DNA of 43,171 nucleotides from a virus (taxonomy: Duplodnaviria > Heunggongvirae > Uroviricota > Caudoviricetes), in the IMG/VR virus record IMGVR_UViG_2939121850_000002, positions 1 to 43,171 of that record. One strand, given 5' to 3'. Positions 3,940 to 38,091 of the stretch are shown piece after piece. The translations under genes and the position numbers were made by a program. Each line of letters opens with the position of its first letter. The first letter of the stretch is position 1. The notes under the pieces were generated by a model. It ran no database searches and was not told the origin of the DNA. It saw only the letters and a program-made list of their open reading frames with translations.

Positions 3940-4496
3940 GAATGCACTCCCTTGTGAAGCTGTTCCGCACAATGCAGCAGGGCGTCAGTCGCCTCTTTCA
4001 CCGTAACGCAGTCGCCATCGTCCAGCCCGGACACCGACGCGTGCTTAACGAACGCCGCGCAAAGGTCATCAAACGCCTTAGCCCGGACTTCAGCCAGGAA
4101 AGCATCGGTGGCTGGGGTGTCTGATTGCATAGACTTTGCGCGATAATCATTCCACCCTCTTGCATATATGGGATTAACTTGCACCCCATCTTTTACGCAA
4201 TATGCCTGCCCTCCACGGTTGATAACCTTGATTTCGTCCATAGCGCCAGACTTCAGCCCCGCATTCTCCGCCGCCAGCGCCGAAAACTTCTCGTGTGCCA
4301 ACTTAACAGCCGCATCAGCCTGCTTAATTGACTCAATCGCTTTCTGGTGGTCTTCGGACAGAGCCGAAATCTTGGCCTCCGCTTCAGCAAATTTACGCAC
4401 CAGATATTCACCGTTTGTTTCGTTAACCTTTAAATCTCGTGGGATGCATTGACCTTTCAGAAAACCATCCATCTCAATTAGTGACATTTGTTTCAT
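3936..4496 (-). CDS. Hypothetical early-left protein (186 aa, coiled-coil N-terminus)
   Basis: Unambiguous ORF, translationally coupled to the Lar-like gene; no motif recognised. Confidence 0.45.
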
Positions 4497-4653
4497 TTCT
4501 TCCCACTCCGCAACATCGCATTCAGATATTTGTTTTGATTCACTGATGGAAAAGAATTTCTCTTAAGCAATTCCTCTCTCGATGGCATTGGCTTTACGCG
4601 TTGGAGAATAATCATTTCTGCCGGAAGAATGCCGGGATTGTATGCAAGTCCTC

Positions 4654-31760: not shown

Positions 31761-33146
31761 ATGGCTACGTGGCAACAGGGTATTAATTCTGGTGGTTTTC
31801 TGGCTGGCATCGGTACGCAAAATGAGAATGCGCCAAAGGCAAGCGACATTAACGCAACGCTTGGTCTGATCCGCGAAAACAATGAACTGGCTCGCTCAGG
31901 TGCAAATAACGTTGGCCTGACCGCGTTACGTGGTCTGGCTGGAGTTGCTGATATTTATAAGCAGGAACAGCAACAGAAAGCGATTAGTGCGTTCAATAAG
32001 GTTCACGCTGATGCATGGGCTTCTGGTGATCCATCGGGACTATTTAAGTTTGCCCAGGAAAATCCAGCGTTTGTTGCACAGGCACAACAGGCGTTTTCCG
32101 GTCTTAATGAGCAGCAACGCAACGATATGGGCGATTTAGCCATGAGAGCTAACGTCGCTCTTTCTCAGGGACCGGAAGCCTACAGTAAATTCATTACTGA
32201 CAACAAGGACAGGTTAAATCGCGTGGGTGCGAATGCTGACTGGATGATTCAGACAGGTATCCAGAATCCAGAGCAGCTATCACACATGCTGACTACTATG
32301 TCTCTCGGTGCACTTGGGCCAGAAAAGGCGTTTGCTGTTCAGGATAAGATGGTTGGTCGCCAGCAGGAGCAGCAAAGAATTAACGAAACCATTCGCAATA
32401 ATGACATGACGAATGCGAGGGCTATTAGGGGGCAAAACCTTTCCTATCAGTCTGCAATGACCGGACACGGACTTGCAGCAGAAAGACTGGCACTTGATAA
32501 GCAGAAATTCGGTTTTGAAGTACAACAGGCACAAAAAAAGGCCGAGGAACTTATTAATGCTGCGCCAAAATTATCAGTGAACATGGAAAAGGCTATAGAA
32601 AAATCAGCAGGTGATGCGGCAGCTAGTCGTAATGCTGCCGATTCAATGACAACGCTCGCTGACACGCTGGAGAGGGAGAAGCCAACTCCTGGTTTGTTCG
32701 GTAACGCTGAAAATATGTTCTCTAAGCTTACGGGGCAAGATAACTACCTCCGAGATATGCGGATTAGATTCAACCAACTAGCCAATGCGCAGGCAACCAA
32801 GCTTCTCCCTCCAGGCCCTGCATCAGATAAGGATATTGAGTTTGCAAGGAAAGGCATTCCAAGCGAAACGGATAATCCAATGGTCATGGCTCGATGGTTA
32901 AGGGGTATGGCAAAAATGGAAAGTAATAACGCGAAGTTCAACGAGTTTAGGTCAGAGTGGATGAGTGCAAACGGCAGCCCAGGACAATCTGATCGCAACC
33001 GAAACATCATGGGGATGGATGTTAAGAAGGGTGAATCATTGAACTCTGCGGCAAAACGTTTTCTTTCCTCAAGTTATGGCGATATCCAACCTCAACAGCA
33101 ATTGTCCGATGACGAATTAATTAGCAAATATCTCGGAGAGCAGTAA
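31761..33146 (+). CDS. Ejection protein (P22 gp20-type)
   Basis: 461 aa; synteny. Confidence 0.7.
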
Positions 33147-34963
33147 TGGCCTATAGTCGCGAACAGTTGATGACGGCGTTAAGGAATGCTGATGCTGCCG
33201 GCGATACTGAGGGAGCACGTCGCATTGCTCAGATGCTGTCTTCTGGTGATCAATCCACTCAAAACCAATCGCAGCCAGAAGAACAATCTCTGGTAGGAAA
33301 AGCTACTGACTGGCTCACTGGTGGTCAAAGTGCAGGGCAAATTGCAGAACAGGCAGGTCGTGGTCTGGTAAACATACCATTTGACGTATTGCAGGGTGGC
33401 GCAAGTCTGATTAATGCAATCAGCCAGGGGCTTGGCGGCCCCAAGGTTTTGGATGATGTCTATCGTCCAGTCGATCGACCGACAGACTCTTACGCACAAG
33501 CCGGTGAAACAATTGGTGGGTATTTAGTTCCAGGAGTTGGAACGGCAGGAAGCATGGCTATTGGCTCACTGGCAGAGGCCGCAAATCAGAAAGGCGATTT
33601 CGCACAAAATGCAGCTAAAAATGCCGGAGTTAACCTTGCCGCTCAGGGGGTTCTTTCCGCAGCAGCAAAGGGAATAGGGCGTGGAATTACTGCTGTTCGT
33701 GGCGAAATATCACCAGCAGATCAGCAATTGCTCAAGCGTGCCGCTGCGGCAGATGTACCAGTTATGACATCGGATGTAGTTCCTCCAAAAACAAAACTTG
33801 GCAATCAACTGCAGGGTTACTCAGAAGGAGTCATAGCTGGTACTGGACCAATGAGATCCGCACAGCAGGATGCTAGAACCAAGCTTGTTAATCGCTTCAC
33901 CGAAAAATACGGCGACTACGATCCATCTGTAGTCGTTGATAGTCTAAAGTCAGGCGTTGCAAGGGAAAAATCGTTAGCCAAGTCAAAACTAAACAACCTG
34001 TCAGGAAGAATGGTTGGAAAGCCAGTTGATACAAATGGCGCCATAAGAGCTATCGACGGAGCAGTAAACGAACTTGGGAAACTTAAAGGTGTTTCTGACA
34101 CCCAGACCATTTCTGCGCTTAATGATTATAAGAATGCCATTCAGGAGATAACAAATGGAGATGATGCCTTTGAGTTACTTGATAAGCTGAGAACTCAGTT
34201 CCGCATTGACGTAAAAGGCGATCGTACAGTTCTGCCATCAATGTCGCAAACAATGGTCGACAGGGTCTACAACTCGCTAACCAATAGCCTTAGTAAATCT
34301 ATAGCAAAAGGACTTAGCCCAAAAGATGCTTCAGCATGGAGAGCGGGAAAAGCTGATTATGCAAAAATGGCAACACATGCAACTCAAACGCGCCTTAAAA
34401 ACGTTCTAAACAAAGGAGATTTAACTCCAGAGGCTGTAAATACCATTGTGTATGGACAATATGGGTCAGATATAGCTCGATTGTACGGGAAACTCGATCA
34501 AAAAGGTAAAGACATGCTAAGGGCGGCATATATCAGCAAAATAGCTGACAAGGTAGGTGACAGCCCTCAGAAAATGATGACCGAGCTTGGCAAGCTGCAA
34601 AAACAAGCAAATGGTCAGGTGTTTAAAACTGTATTTGGTGGGAAGAACGGAAAAGAGATAGAGGGGATGTTATCTATTCTCGATGCTACCAAAAGAGCAT
34701 CTGAGGCTAATGTTGTGACGAAGACTGGCATGACACTCGCGCCTTTGGTAAGGGTTATTGGTAACCTAAAAACCGGAGGCGCGCTATTGGCTGGGGAAAC
34801 AGGGATTGGCCTTATGTCGAGGGTTTATGAAAGCCCTATGGCCAGGAATGCGTTCTTACGTCTGGCAAACACCAAAGCAGGAACGCCAGCCTATGAAAGA
34901 GCATTAAGTAACGCTGCAAATGCCATCAGACCGCTGCTTGCCACTGAGGCAACACAGCAGTGA
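33146..34963 (+). CDS. Ejection protein (P22 gp16-type)
   Basis: 605 aa; synteny. Confidence 0.7.
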   Translation: MAYSREQLMTALRNADAAGDTEGARRIAQMLSSGDQSTQNQSQPEEQSLVGKATDWLTGGQSAGQIAEQAGRGLVNIPFDVLQGGASLINAISQGLGGPKVLDDVYRPVDRPTDSYAQAGETIGGYLVPGVGTAGSMAIGSLAEAANQKGDFAQNAAKNAGVNLAAQGVLSAAAKGIGRGITAVRGEISPADQQLLKRAAAADVPVMTSDVVPPKTKLGNQLQGYSEGVIAGTGPMRSAQQDARTKLVNRFTEKYGDYDPSVVVDSLKSGVAREKSLAKSKLNNLSGRMVGKPVDTNGAIRAIDGAVNELGKLKGVSDTQTISALNDYKNAIQEITNGDDAFELLDKLRTQFRIDVKGDRTVLPSMSQTMVDRVYNSLTNSLSKSIAKGLSPKDASAWRAGKADYAKMATHATQTRLKNVLNKGDLTPEAVNTIVYGQYGSDIARLYGKLDQKGKDMLRAAYISKIADKVGDSPQKMMTELGKLQKQANGQVFKTVFGGKNGKEIEGMLSILDATKRASEANVVTKTGMTLAPLVRVIGNLKTGGALLAGETGIGLMSRVYESPMARNAFLRLANTKAGTPAYERALSNAANAIRPLLATEATQQ

Positions 34964-34980
34964 CTAAATGCCATGGATGG

Positions 34981-35169
34981 TTATTTCCTTAGCACATGAA
35001 ACAATGTTTGCTTTAATTCCACCCATACAATTATGACCACTATAGACAGACAAAAGAAACTGAATGCATTGGCATCACGATCGAAACCTTCTCCGGCACT
35101 AAATCCGTAAAAGGTCATAAAAAATATAAAAATTGCGCACTTTGCAACGTTTACAAATTTTTTCTTCAT
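34981..35169 (-). CDS. Small membrane protein (62 aa), convergent with gp16
   Basis: ATG at 35169 preceded by a strong AAGGAGG; hydrophobic segments; AT-rich. Confidence 0.45.
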   Translation of the reverse strand: MKKKFVNVAKCAIFIFFMTFYGFSAGEGFDRDANAFSFFCLSIVVIIVWVELKQTLFHVLRK

Positions 35170-35199
35170 ACCAACCTCCTTAGTTTTGCGCAGGATACC

Positions 35200-35565
35200 A
35201 TGAAAAAAGTTAACATTGGAAACGTACCAAAGATGCTCGTTCCGCTCTTTGAGAGCGGTACAATTGTGTTTTGTAGAGACTTTCCAGAATGGCAACGCCT
35301 GCATCAAAAACTTGGCGTTGACGTGCAGGACTCGGATGCCAACGGAGCGTCTCATACAATGAGCAGCGAGAATGGTGTTTTGCATGTGATAGGCGTGTTC
35401 AATGGCAAACTATCTACTATTGCCCATGAGTGCGCTCACATGGCATTCGATATCTGCTCAAGGGTAGGTGTTGATGTTGAACCAGGAAGAGCCAACGAGA
35501 CTTACTGCTACTTAATGAGCAGGCTTGTTGAGTTCTGCGAGCGACATATCAAAAAGCCGGAGTGA
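35200..35565 (+). CDS. Small HExxH-motif protein (putative minimal zinc metallopeptidase), 121 aa
   Basis: IAHECAHMAF; divergently arranged ~30 bp from the 62-aa membrane protein gene. Confidence 0.45.
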   Translation: MKKVNIGNVPKMLVPLFESGTIVFCRDFPEWQRLHQKLGVDVQDSDANGASHTMSSENGVLHVIGVFNGKLSTIAHECAHMAFDICSRVGVDVEPGRANETYCYLMSRLVEFCERHIKKPE

Positions 35566-35578
35566 CCCGGCTTGATTA

Positions 35579-35803
35579 TTACTTTTTTTGGTATGTTAAG
35601 AATGGCAAGTCGCCAGTGTACCCCAAGCGGAAAAGCTCCAATTGCTTATCTCTTATGGATAAAAAATAATCGTTTCTTGCCTTTTTAAGCCACAACCAGC
35701 CGATCATCAAGATGAATAATATTGATATTATTGGCATCGGGGAGATCAACACCACTCCGATGAATAATGACGCTAGCAGCACCGATAAAATAGCAGAAAT
35801 CAT
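35579..35803 (-). CDS. Small two-TM membrane protein (74 aa)
   Basis: Two hydrophobic helices; AT-rich. Confidence 0.45.
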   Translation of the reverse strand: MISAILSVLLASLFIGVVLISPMPIISILFILMIGWLWLKKARNDYFLSIRDKQLELFRLGYTGDLPFLTYQKK

Positions 35804-35828
35804 ACTAATCTCCCACTAAGGTAACAAT

Positions 35829-36014
35829 ATGACTATAGAAGAACGTCTGAACAACATTGAGTTAAACCAAACCCTGCTTGACCAGCGACTTTCAGAGCTT
35901 GAACTTAAAGATCTAGATGCGCAAATATCAGAAGCAGAAGCCAAGCTCTCCAGCTTAAACCACCGTAAGAAGCAAATCCGCGACAGAATTACTCGTGGAC
36001 GCGGAGGCTGTTAA
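35829..36014 (+). CDS. Small coiled-coil protein (61 aa)
   Basis: Heptad-like Leu/Glu pattern and basic C-terminus; weak RBS. Confidence 0.3.
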   Translation: MTIEERLNNIELNQTLLDQRLSELELKDLDAQISEAEAKLSSLNHRKKQIRDRITRGRGGC

Positions 36015-36091
36015 GGTGTGATGGTAATCCTTGCTCACTAAATTTAAGGATGCGAATCTTTCCGGCCATAGGAGTAATCATGATTTACCCA

Positions 36092-36628
36092 TCAAACAAC
36101 CCACCAGTTTGCCTGATTGGATACCAGCCTTGCAGTTTTTATGGAATTAATTATGCCATGCTCAAGAGCCTTGTTAGCATCCAAAATGGTCGAGTCTGCT
36201 ATCAGGGATGCCCACCTAATATGGGTTCCGATGTCGATATTGAACGTCTCAACGAAGCGATCAAGATCGTTATCGAGGCATTTCCCGTACTCTCTCAATC
36301 TGGCATGGTCGGCGGCTGGGGTGGCAAAGCCCCATAATAGAGGATGTAACAGGAATCTTGATAATGGGTTTGCGAAACGTTCTGAGCCAGCCAGGAAAAC
36401 GATATTAGCTATGGATTCAACATTGCTTATGTTGTGAGTTCTAACGGTAACAGGGAGTGACTTAAGAAAGTTATACGCAGTAAAACCAGCGGCAGTTTCC
36501 CCTCCCTGACTTGATATATGGATATTTAATTCAGTTGCGCCTTGAGATAATGCGGTGAGACAGTGGTTCTGAAGTTGCCCAACAGTGGCAGTGTTAACGG
36601 GGCATAAGAAATGAATTGTGTGCAGCAT
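36092..36628 (-). CDS. ClpP-fold (Clp/crotonase-type) serine peptidase-like protein, translationally coupled to mnt
   Basis: Aligns by eye to the ClpP catalytic core (Ser in ...NVESIANIVFLAGSER..., His in ...FLLHPL...); its start shares one nucleotide with the mnt stop (TAATG). Confidence 0.55.
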   Translation of the reverse strand: MLHTIHFLCPVNTATVGQLQNHCLTALSQGATELNIHISSQGGETAAGFTAYNFLKSLPVTVRTHNISNVESIANIVFLAGSERFANPLSRFLLHPLLWGFATPAADHARLREYGKCLDNDLDRFVETFNIDIGTHIRWASLIADSTILDANKALEHGIINSIKTARLVSNQANWWVV

Positions 36629-36864
36629 TATTTTTCATCCTTACCATACATGGTTTTCAGCGTCTCAAGCAGCGCATCCCTGAATTTGTCAGCCTCTTTC
36701 TGAGCAAATTCATTGCTATTAAGCGATCTACCACAAACAGCATCTTCGATAATCTGTATTATTTCAGCATTCATGGAACGCTTGTTATGTTGCGCCCTGG
36801 CTTTAACCTTTTCCTTTAACTCTTTGGAAATCCTAATATTTATTTGCGGCTCTTCGCGTGACAT
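36628..36864 (-). CDS. mnt: Mnt-like ribbon-helix-helix repressor (immI maintenance repressor)
   Basis: RHH N-terminus (INIRISKELKEKVKARAQHNKRSMNAEIIQIIEDAV) as in P22 Mnt; divergent from arc-ant. Confidence 0.7.
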   Translation of the reverse strand: MSREEPQINIRISKELKEKVKARAQHNKRSMNAEIIQIIEDAVCGRSLNSNEFAQKEADKFRDALLETLKTMYGKDEK

Positions 36865-36916
36865 ACCACCTCCATAGCATTTTGGTGATATTACTATTGC
36901 ATCACTGCGATCACAA

Positions 36917-36935
36917 TGGTATAACGGTTATACCA
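36917..36935. promoter_or_regulatory. Perfect 19-bp palindrome in the mnt/arc intergenic region (candidate Mnt/Arc operator)
   Basis: TGGTATAAC-G-GTTATACCA, between divergent mnt and arc. Confidence 0.45.
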
Positions 36936-36952
36936 AATTGATTGGAGGTAAT

Positions 36953-37126
36953 ATGATAGTCAAGTCAGACGCACCAAAGTACCCTTTGCGCATCCCATTA
37001 GAGGTTAAGTTAGCAATCGAGAAGTCAGCGAAAGAAAATGGTCGCTCAATAAATACCGAGATGGTAATGCGGTTGGTGGATAGTTTAAGGCGGGATAGTT
37101 CTAAAGGTAATCTAGCAAAAAGTTGA
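36953..37126 (+). CDS. arc: Arc-like ribbon-helix-helix repressor
   Basis: 57 aa with PLRIPLEVKLAIEKSAKENGRSINTEMVMRLVDSL, similar to P22 Arc. Confidence 0.7.
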   Translation: MIVKSDAPKYPLRIPLEVKLAIEKSAKENGRSINTEMVMRLVDSLRRDSSKGNLAKS

Positions 37127-37205
37127 AGCCCCAACTGCGGTAACAGTCAGGGCTTCGGTTGTCGGTAAATCCGTGGAGAAAAACCAACATGAATAGTATA
37201 GCAAT
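37112..37205 (-). ncRNA. Candidate sar-like antisense RNA across the arc-ant junction
   Basis: Minus-strand intrinsic terminator (7-bp stem GAAGCCC/GGGCTTC, then TTTTT on the minus strand) in the arc-ant intergenic region, where P22 sar RNA terminates. 5' end and promoter not determined. Confidence 0.3.
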
Positions 37206-38091
37206 TTTAGAAGCAGTGAACACCTCTTACGTGCCTTTCAATGGTCAGCAAATTATCACCGCCATGGCTGCCGGAGTTGCATATGTTGCGATGAAACCAA
37301 TCGTTGAAAACCTCGGAATGAGTTGGGGTACTCAGCAACAAAAACTTATGAAACAACTAGATAAGTTCAACTGTATTCATATGAATATGGTTGCTGCTGA
37401 TGGAAAGCTTCGTAAGCTACTCTGCCTTCCTTTGAAGAAGTTAAATGGATGGCTGTTCAGCATCAACCCTGAGAAAGTTCGTGCTGACATCCGTGATAAA
37501 CTGATTCAGTACCAGGAAGAATGCTTTACTGTGCTGCATGACTACTGGACGAAGGGAAAGGCAGAAAATGCACGTAAGAAAACATCTGTTGATGACAGGA
37601 CTCCGCTTCGTGATGCTGTAAATATGCTAGTCAGCAAAAAGCATCTAATGTACCCAGAAGCTTATGCAATGATTCATCAGCGTTTCAATGTGGAAAGTAT
37701 TGAAGAGCTTGATGCATCTCAGATACCGCAAGCCGTAGAGTACATCCACAGGGTAGTGCTTGAAGGCGAGTTAATCGGCAAACAAGAGAAGAAAACCAAC
37801 GAGCTTTCTGCAAAAGAAGCAAACAGCCTTGTATGGTTATGGGATTATGCCAACCGTTCACAGGCATTATTCCGCGAACTGTATCCGGCATTAAAACAAA
37901 TTCAATCGAACTATTCCGGCAGATGCTACGACTACGGTCATGAGTTCTCGTATGTTATCGGAATGGCGAGAGACGTTTTAATCAATCACACACGAGATAT
38001 TGATATCAATGAGCCAGACGGACCAACGAATCTTTCCGCATGGATGAGACTTAAGAATAAAGAATTACCTCCTTCAGTACATAACTACTGA
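37189..38091 (+). CDS. ant: Antirepressor Ant
   Basis: [52 protein letters not shown]... matches P22 Ant as recalled; GGAGAA RBS. Confidence 0.8.

Follow-up and report, generated by a model that had tools for sequence, protein, structure and literature searches.

In P22-like phages, the stretch between genes 16 and 9 is known as the 'ant moron', which varies in length and content and has been described as 'ten types in sixteen genomes' (2008, PMC2629481). The records of P22 and HK620 are annotated with the order sieA, PsieA, hkcC, terminator, orf59a and mnt. SieA is the best-known occupant of its position, and its mechanism has been explained only recently. An 85-bp segment inserted together with sieA at galK sufficed for exclusion, and SieA proteins of types A–C carry the cytoplasmic motif FxRYPxEAxxFNK (2024, PMC10883804). 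The same paper cites the HK97 gp15 moron as encoding a small membrane exclusion protein. The literature found on hkcC and orf59a consists of mentions in genome annotations, with no functional work. The present study concerns positions 34964-36091 of a viral DNA of 43,171 nucleotides (nt) from IMG/VR record IMGVR_UViG_2939121850_000002, which is referred to at its full length as the window. Four small open reading frames (ORF1–ORF4) are located there. The interval almost certainly represents a mosaic of four genuine genes and forms the left arm of the ant moron in a P22-like (Lederbergvirus) prophage.

A megablast search showed window positions 35167-35587 to be 98.8–99.3% identical to P22 and HK620. 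Since this match (99.3% nucleotide identity to HK620 and 98.8% to P22) covers the segment annotated as hkcC, ORF2 can be identified as hkcC. The relatives of gene 16 on the left are labelled 'DNA transfer protein' or carry PF26808 Phage_P22_gp16. To the right of the four ORFs follow a ClpP-like gene, an mnt-like and an arc-like gene (Pfam Arc), the sar RNA, ant and the tailspike gene. The immI circuit is complete, since the mnt-like and arc-like genes, a full-length sar RNA and ant are all present. A previous reading of the window, made from the sequence only, had described the four ORFs as a moron-like island at the sieA position. The place is that of the published ant moron (PMC2629481) and ORF1 lies where P22 has sieA, whereas the other three ORFs lie outside the actual sieA position. 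The term moron, which denotes an independently expressed insert in a phage late operon, seems appropriate also in that a putative promoter and a putative terminator homologous to annotated P22 and HK620 elements are present, and in that the contents vary over the 85 related loci described below.

The comparison covered 80 viral contigs encoding HkcC together with loci from annotated phage and Escherichia coli collections and from public assemblies. In the 85 related loci, HkcC is 99–100% identical wherever hkcC is present, and its neighbours differ. Its left-hand neighbours on the minus strand comprise no fewer than ten unrelated proteins, namely SieA, a lipoprotein of 161 amino acids (aa), three HkcB-type 109-aa proteins, proteins of 122, 106, 149, 99 and 68 aa (the last YobH-like) and ORF1. 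In nearly all of them, the N-terminus carries a signal peptide, a lipobox or a transmembrane segment. On the right, hkcC is followed by either orf59a or ORF3, which are mutually exclusive; ORF3 was found in 11 of the 85 loci and in the window, and is not tied to ORF1. ORF1 also occurs without hkcC (L003), ORF4 occurs with orf59a or ORF3 and also without hkcC (phage Kapi1), and the ClpP-like gene is present with or without ORF4.

The junctions between the modules are sharp. Over 47 distinct left flanks, conservation amounts to 0.85–1.0 at positions −1 to −30 of the hkcC ATG, extends through the first two bases of the start codon of the slot gene (to −33) and is random beyond. The right flank is conserved from +1 to +22 past the hkcC stop, a stretch that holds the terminator and the final codons of the convergent gene, and then separates into orf59a and ORF3 classes. 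ORF4 was found in four upstream and four downstream contexts, the breaks coinciding with its start and stop codons. ORF3 shows 0–1 nucleotide differences in loci where ORF4 shows 8–15. The co-occurrence and junction data reject the view of the interval as one island: each ORF occurs apart from the others in relatives, and the modules join at start codons or close to where the convergent gene has its 3′ end. Compared across P22-like prophages, as the sequence-only reading had proposed, the interval is variable and consists of four single-gene modules swapped independently. The exact gene combination of the window was found in none of the 85 related loci, 50,697 phage records and 5426 complete E. 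coli genomes (at least 80% coverage). Swapping is likely to proceed by recombination in conserved anchors, which would be the 3′ end of gene 16 with the 17-nt spacer, hkcC with its embedded promoter and terminator, and ORF4/immI. The best explanation of the interval, and one we regard as reasonably probable, is an ant-moron mosaic of four swapped modules with a leftward lysogenic and a rightward late programme.

The features of the locus are listed in Table 1. The alternating orientation and the sizes given for the four ORFs in the sequence-only reading are borne out by their coordinates and strands, and the strong Shine-Dalgarno sequence noted for the 62-aa frame is present. ORF1 and ORF2 are arranged head-to-head 30 nt apart, ORF2 and ORF3 tail-to-tail with 13 nt between them, and ORF3 and ORF4 head-to-head with 25 nt. 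The interval was also described as AT-rich, which holds only in part. Its GC-content of 42.1%, against 47.0% for the window, places it in the 7th percentile of windows of the same size, with the low values concentrated in ORF1 (33.9%) and ORF3 (38.7%); hkcC (46.4%) and ORF4 (44.6%) are ordinary. The downstream immI and tailspike regions are just as AT-rich. A repeat search and an Rfam scan revealed nothing inside 34964-36091.

Table 1. Positions of genes and regulatory elements at the left arm of the ant moron and its surroundings in the window.
Feature	Position	Strand	Remarks
Gene 16 (ejection/DNA transfer protein)	33146..34963	+	605-aa ORF; left anchor of the variable region
Spacer of 17 nt between convergent stops of gene 16 and ORF1	34964..34980	.	
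ORF1, 62 aa, two hydrophobic segments, in sieA slot	34981..35169	-	AAGGAGG 5 nt before ATG
PsieA promoter, 5′ untranslated region and Shine-Dalgarno region	35170..35254	-	Overlaps first hkcC codons
ORF2 = hkcC, 121 aa, HECAH motif	35200..35565	+	HExxH 76-80, NET 99-101
Bidirectional intrinsic terminator (t-mnt/tORF59A)	35554..35573	.	Common to hkcC and convergent gene
ORF3, 74 aa, predicted membrane protein, in place of orf59a	35579..35803	-	GGGAG Shine-Dalgarno
ORF4, 61 aa, coiled coil, conserved C-terminal Cys	35829..36014	+	
3′ remnant (30-aa ORF) of a 69-aa gene	35989..36081	-	Ends ...SHLNSLRVHE
ClpP-like protease, 178 aa, second gene of mnt operon	36092..36628	-	
mnt-like ribbon-helix-helix repressor	36628..36864	-	Pfam Arc, E 6e-14
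sar antisense RNA, full length	37121-37188	-	RF00262, 96 bits; between arc and ant

The sieA position can be described as a codon-precise swap slot, which holds, in the sampled loci, at least ten unrelated proteins whose N-termini carry signal or hydrophobic segments. In the window it is occupied by ORF1, and the 85 nt upstream of ORF1 are identical in 84 positions to the segment preceding sieA in P22; the P22-pbi record has PsieA annotated. GTG serves as the start codon of the slot gene in 46 of the 47 distinct flanks; ORF1 starts with ATG at the same position. This ATG at 35167-35169 (minus strand) may be an up-mutation of translation. ORF1 belongs to phrog_21338 (E 5e-45). Its Kyte–Doolittle profile contains two hydrophobic segments, at approximately residues 5–25 and 33–56, and so the description of ORF1 as a membrane protein agrees with its hydropathy. 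Homologues from Salmonella and Serratia are exactly 62 aa long and 77–81% identical, with 32 residues invariant over three genera, including the inter-segment loop GEGFDRDxNxFS. Against these homologues, the proportion of synonymous differences (pS) is 0.20–0.27 and that of non-synonymous differences (pN) about 0.09, with a pN/pS ratio of about 0.3–0.5, which corresponds to purifying selection.

All divergent ORF1 homologues examined adjoin gene 16 convergently with the same 17-nt spacer. The spacer is near-identical in E. coli-type and Salmonella-type copies, although the C-termini of gp16 are 53–58% identical. These homologues are preceded, in the same direction, by a second slot gene, which encodes a 161-aa protein in Salmonella and a Rap1a-like protein (PF18602) in Serratia. 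The C-terminus of gp16 as found in the window (at least 98% identity) occurs in five of the six related loci with ORF1 and in one of the 56 loci without it. This association is expected from physical linkage and is no evidence of targeting. A 134-aa minus-strand ORF (34981-35385) extends ORF1 through hkcC antisense, and some assemblies call versions of 86–103 aa. The conserved Shine-Dalgarno sequence and the junction sit at the start of the 62-aa frame, which argues that the upstream extension is an artefact of hkcC conservation. In tblastn searches, P22 SieA matched nothing in the window or in ORF1-type loci, and ORF1 and ORF3 were also rejected as homologues of SieA, HkcB or Orf59a after no similarity was found. 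Identity of ORF1 with 'orf62' of phage L was likewise set aside; the tblastn matches were to JEP4, phiv205-1 and UPF_BP1 (twice) only, and neither to L nor to ST64T.

The Rap1a-like gene, whose family is described in Pfam as immunity proteins, was observed in the sieA slot of Serratia-type P22-like prophages (L090-L092, 3643-3999; L098, 209-562). It is placed upstream of the 62-aa ORF1 homologue or adjoins hkcC. It may be an orphan gene, borne by the prophage, for immunity to a type VI secretion effector.

The sequence-only reading regarded the second ORF as an HExxH protein and putative peptidase, and would have counted it against itself if the ORFs corresponded to known SieA or Hkc homologues with ordinary function. 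For one ORF such a correspondence exists: ORF2 is simply HkcC, a named HK620/P22 gene product (protein identity 99–100%; phrog_1365, E 1.4e-39), and a small zincin remains plausible from the motif and the fold matches. Among 5.8 billion protein clusters, 32 relatives of HkcC were found with identities down to 43%, and all those with an organism name come from Enterobacterales. The 38 nucleotide alleles of hkcC show purifying selection, with at most nine synonymous versus 0–1 non-synonymous changes. In 21 HkcC sequences (down to 43% identity), S72, T73, A75, H76, E77, C78, H80, A82, F83, C86, G90 and V91 are invariant, and N99, E100, T101, C25 and C103 are conserved in at least 90%.

An AlphaFold (AF2) model of HkcC (predicted local distance difference test 88.6, predicted template-modelling score 0.83) has the order beta-beta-alpha-beta-beta-alpha(HExxH)-alpha(NET). 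In this model, HExxH would lie within helix 71–88 and NET at the start of helix 100–116, with E100, a candidate third metal ligand, 20 residues after H80. Thermolysin (H142/H146/E166), with the signature HExxH...NExxSD, has the same spacing of 20 residues between the second His and the Glu. A fold search of the predicted viral structures in BFVD returned 24 matches at E < 1e-3 with query-normalised template-modelling scores of 0.55–0.82. The matched proteins are small and belong to many different phages, those with a name including phages of Ralstonia, Pseudomonas, Erwinia, Achromobacter and Eggerthella. A few carry the name SprT-like, and somewhat weaker matches that of metalloprotease or IrrE. 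The best meaningful Foldseek match in the PDB was SPRTN (PDB 6MDX), below significance, and one member of the HkcC family gave a weak match to Pfam SprT-like (PF10263, E 0.055). No Pfam peptidase family and no solved zincin structure was matched significantly by HkcC, and a profile of the HkcC family found no matches among PDB sequences even at E 10. From these data, we take HkcC most likely to be a minimal zinc peptidase of SprT-like or gluzincin-like layout and assign it to no curated peptidase family. That it is an active metallopeptidase seems about as likely as not.

HkcC might alternatively be no peptidase of this kind, but a small Cys/His metal-binding protein or an anti-repressor protease of the ImmA/IrrE type acting on Mnt or C2. 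In favour are the cysteines C25, C78, C86 and C103 conserved around the HExxH motif, the lack of a significant match to solved zincins, the two weak BFVD matches named IrrE and the position of hkcC next to immI. However, HExxH followed by NE 20 residues on is the spacing of thermolysin-type gluzincins, and among the BFVD matches the better ones go under the names SprT-like or metalloprotease. In addition, a repressor-specific role is hard to reconcile with siphovirus tail-gene clusters in which hkcC and orf59a are found without mnt or arc among the called neighbours. We therefore consider both variants unlikely and retain the minimal zinc peptidase. A role of HkcC in cleaving off the first 20 residues of the ejection protein gp7 was also considered and was rejected, because this cleavage is assigned in the literature to the host protease OpdA (PMC8402733).

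The hairpin behind hkcC scans as a terminator on both strands; the P22-pbi record lists it as a terminator and the HK620 record as a bidirectional one. In Klebsiella oxytoca, Rosenbergiella and metagenomic contigs, each of the distant HkcC homologues (43–63% identity) has a convergent 59-aa gene behind it. The 59-aa partners have 36–50 of 59 residues identical to P22 Orf59a, and the intervening hairpin is present with differing stem sequences. The convergent hkcC/orf59a pair is thus kept in five other contexts with HkcC identity down to 43%, and three of these are siphovirus tail-gene clusters, where the pair lies between tail tube/Phage_YdaY genes and the tape-measure gene. Because the pair recurs in distant homologues and siphovirus contexts, hkcC, the terminator and orf59a can be assumed to form a two-gene module that is itself mobile. 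In the window this module is present in a derived form: the terminator is kept, but the convergent pairing of hkcC with orf59a is not, the partner being replaced by ORF3. In the siphovirus-type and metagenomic loci the pair is located at 4001-4563 (L095), 4001-4556 (L097), 4001-4557 (L103) and 544-1131 (L100). Once, it adjoins a PF18894 PhageMetallopep gene. Orf59a has a weak YjzC-like match in Pfam (E 0.006, below threshold).

ORF3 forms a narrow family with four clusters at 93% identity or more, and no PHROG or Pfam match was found for it. Compared with the only divergent copy (L093, a metagenomic contig of 551 nt), 29 of the 74 codons differ; 22 of the changes are synonymous, six are conservative (I/V, I/M, L/M) and one turns the start ATG into GTG. 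ORF3 had been predicted to contain two transmembrane segments. The protein is indeed hydrophobic, and the hydropathy plot reveals one long segment, residues 1–40, broken by SPMP. On contig L093, ORF3 is followed by a small hydrophobic ORF on the same strand (410-550) instead of hkcC. The ORF4 homologue of this contig is divergent to ORF3 across the same 25-nt spacer and resembles the 75%-identical ORF4 homologue.

ORF4 belongs to phrog_7586 (E 2e-43) and is present in phages Kapi1 and Emek. Its 61-aa homologues are 74–75% identical and all end in Cys, and the values of pS (0.13–0.24) and pN (0.02–0.05), with a pN/pS ratio of about 0.15–0.2, point to purifying selection. No hydrophobic segment was seen in its hydropathy profile. 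XhlA (PF10779), a name given to some homologues by the Prokaryotic Genome Annotation Pipeline (PGAP) or CDD, was rejected for ORF4 (E 0.096; its 13.3 bits fall short of the Pfam gathering threshold of 34.7, and a hydrophobic segment is likewise lacking).

The two genes could be read as a toxin-antitoxin or addiction-like pair composed of a hydrophobic membrane toxin and a divergent coiled-coil regulator. ORF3 is small and very hydrophobic, and the divergent arrangement with its 25-nt spacer recurs in L093 although ORF3 differs there at 29 of 74 codons. Elsewhere, however, ORF4 is divergent to an unrelated 60-aa signal-peptide protein or follows a terminator without any divergent partner. There is a recombination break between ORF3 and ORF4, no DNA-binding or known antitoxin signature was recognised in ORF4 (Pfam, NCBIfam), and no Rfam antisense or antitoxin RNA in 34700-36100. 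Such a pair is decidedly unlikely, and ORF3 and ORF4 are better regarded as separate modules.

The arrangement of the genes suggests two expression programmes, with ORF1 and ORF3 transcribed leftwards from the prophage and hkcC and ORF4 rightwards in the late phase; by analogy with P22, we incline slightly towards this view. Since 84 of its 85 upstream nucleotides match the P22 segment that is sufficient together with sieA, ORF1 would be expressed like sieA, from the prophage. It would be driven by PsieA and form a helical hairpin in the inner membrane, the short loop of which (GEGFDRDxNxFS) is acidic and conserved. P22 has its terminator labelled t-mnt downstream of orf59a, and the scan of the minus strand from the ClpP-like gene to ORF3 (36092-35803) found no terminator-like site. 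For these two reasons, ORF3 can be placed as the probable last gene of the mnt transcript, which presumably starts at the mnt promoter and would end at the shared bidirectional terminator. The ORF3 protein may comprise two short transmembrane segments and a charged tail. ORF1 and ORF3 are most likely envelope proteins expressed by the prophage that would alter or protect the lysogen, and both are candidates for exclusion or lysogenic conversion. For ORF1, exclusion of incoming phage DNA at the inner membrane is ranked first among such roles by analogy with SieA, and that ORF1 excludes incoming phages is a tentative proposal, possible but doubtful.

On the plus strand, a consensus scan revealed no promoter-like site in 34800-37300. 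An intrinsic terminator lies 25–45 nt before the ATG in two other ORF4 contexts, which leaves no room for a promoter of ORF4's own. In P22-like phages, hkcC and ORF4 are co-oriented with the late operon, and hkcC is so oriented in siphovirus-type prophages too. Lacking recognisable sigma-70 promoters, hkcC and ORF4 would be read from the antiterminated late transcript towards the tailspike. HkcC would act as a zinc-dependent minimal peptidase, whose usual partner is the convergent YjzC-like orf59a, lost here to ORF3.

Several points weigh against this picture. In Pfam, PHROG, tblastn and PADLOC searches, neither ORF1 nor ORF3 resembled SieA or any other exclusion protein that has been characterised. 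The four conserved cysteines of HkcC would be compatible, too, with a metal site that is structural and not catalytic. PsieA was missed by the consensus scan, and the use of this promoter would be as in P22 by analogy; expression of hkcC and ORF4 by late read-through is an assumption.

The ClpP-like gene, whose start overlaps the stop of the mnt-like gene, matches Pfam CLP_protease (E 4e-12). Its product is an N-terminally truncated ClpP paralogue, and the best solved relative is PpClpP1 of Pseudomonas plecoglossicida (PDB 9UXT, E 5.8e-35). PpClpP1 is non-canonical, cannot bind ClpX, forms mixed tetradecamers with canonical ClpP and raises proteolysis (PMC12900304). By analogy, a candidate ClpP modifier expressed by the prophage may adjoin the repressor gene here. 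In other P22-like prophages, mnt is followed by a 69-aa gene, whose C-terminus (...SHLNSFRVHE/PE in L010, L029 and L040) matches the end ...SHLNSLRVHE of the 30-aa remnant in the window; the end of the remnant overlaps the 3′ end of ORF4. As judged from this match, the ClpP-like gene has displaced the 69-aa gene here, and the remnant marks the apparent swap site.

The same stretch was found to hold other occupants in relatives. A HicA/DUF1902 pair lies beside the ClpP-like gene in L089 (2483-3019), and a Panacea-domain protein is encoded in E. coli APEC IMT5155 (H45). Such toxin-antitoxin-type and defence-type cargo (HicAB, Panacea, Rap1a-like) fits a cargo hotspot, and within the P22-type morphogenetic operon it is only the stretch from gene 16 to the tailspike that accepts cargo. 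The interval had also been put forward as a candidate exclusion or defence locus, with which the defence-type and immunity-type genes of the relatives agree. An exclusion or defence activity of the interval itself is suggested by its position only. No Pfam, NCBIfam or PADLOC (PADLOC-DB 2.0) family was matched by ORF1–ORF4, and the ClpP-like protein had no PADLOC match; the hit of ORF4 to PADLOC PbeC (E 6e-4, 16 bits) is coiled-coil noise.

It might be supposed that the four ORFs constitute one cooperating exclusion or defence system of membrane sensors or effectors and a peptidase, given that they are tightly packed and alternating beside immI and that toxin-antitoxin-type and immunity-type genes occur in the same stretch of relatives. 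The four ORFs are, however, without PADLOC matches, and each of them occurs apart: ORF1 without hkcC in L003, hkcC with at least ten left neighbours, ORF4 with orf59a or, in Kapi1, without hkcC, and ORF3 exclusive with orf59a yet not tied to ORF1. The sharp steps in divergence between adjacent genes (ORF3 and ORF4 in the same loci) speak against it as well. One system is thus very improbable, and the mosaic of independently swapped modules is preferred.

All four ORFs are under purifying selection, so that the sequence-only reading, which would have fallen had they not been conserved as coding, stands in this respect. Because of the synonymous and non-synonymous patterns and the conserved homologues, the sequence comparisons indicate that all four are real genes and that chance ORFs are excluded. 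The idea that some of them, chiefly ORF1 or ORF3, are chance frames in AT-rich spacer DNA is hardly tenable: both are unannotated in PGAP and GenBank phage records and ORF3 has no PHROG or Pfam match, but Shine-Dalgarno sites precede both, ORF1 keeps its 62 aa and 32 invariant residues at 77–81% identity over three genera and starts exactly at the module junction in 47 distinct flanks, and ORF3 has 22 synonymous versus six conservative codon changes.

The hotspot itself and hkcC as a named gene are already known. New here, and incremental, are the codon-precise slot structure, the proof that ORF1 and ORF3 are coding, the zincin-like character of HkcC and the hkcC/orf59a partnership; they refine a known hotspot and do not overturn views of phage mosaicism. 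The occupants of the sieA slot, ORF1 among them, make up a ready list of candidate exclusion or lysogenic-conversion proteins. The hkcC gene gains a testable biochemical identity as a putative minimal SprT-like zincin, with orf59a as its conserved partner.

Two further readings can be formulated, which, taken jointly, we rate as rather unlikely. According to the first, the locus offers leftward 'expression sockets', namely PsieA with its Shine-Dalgarno sequence and start codon, the orf59a socket reaching to the shared terminator and a socket behind mnt, with ORF1 as an exclusion protein. If so, unrelated envelope-protein cassettes would be exchanged with codon-level precision, and ORF1 would be a new injection-blocking protein of minimal size (62 aa), in physical linkage with one particular C-terminal allele of gp16. 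According to the second, hkcC and orf59a form a conflict module. A previously unrecognised mobile module, with a minimal zincin and a YjzC-like small protein encoded convergently around a bidirectional terminator, would then be carried in the late operons of podovirus-type and siphovirus-type prophages, and might serve as a protease with its partner in conflicts between phage and host or between phages.

As for known systems, ORF1 shares with SieA the slot between genes 16 and 9, the leftward strand, the promoter and Shine-Dalgarno sequence, the position of the start codon and a predicted location in the inner membrane. SieA is a protein of about 160–200 aa with multiple transmembrane helices, whereas ORF1 has 62 aa with two hydrophobic segments and is without FxRYPxEAxxFNK. 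T4 Imm is a small membrane exclusion protein. The mode suggested for ORF1, a small inner-membrane protein expressed from the prophage by its own promoter inside a late operon, would resemble T4 Imm and the HK97 gp15 moron; ORF1 has no sequence relationship to either. HkcC resembles SprT-like proteins and minimal gluzincins (PF10263; SPRTN 6MDX; thermolysin-type) in a predicted HExxH helix that follows a small beta-sheet and a backing helix and in a conserved Glu at +20, predicted at the start of the next helix, and it differs from them in its extra conserved cysteines and in having no significant match to their sequences or solved structures. With HK620 (hkcB/hkcC) and P22 (hkcC/orf59a), the window has hkcC in common; hkcB is missing and orf59a is replaced. 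The position, the anchors (gene 16, hkcC, the bidirectional terminator, mnt/arc/sar/ant and the tailspike) and the rapid gene flux are those of the published ant moron, and the window differs from the P22 ant moron in having ORF1 for sieA, ORF3 for orf59a, an additional ORF4 and a ClpP-like gene behind mnt.

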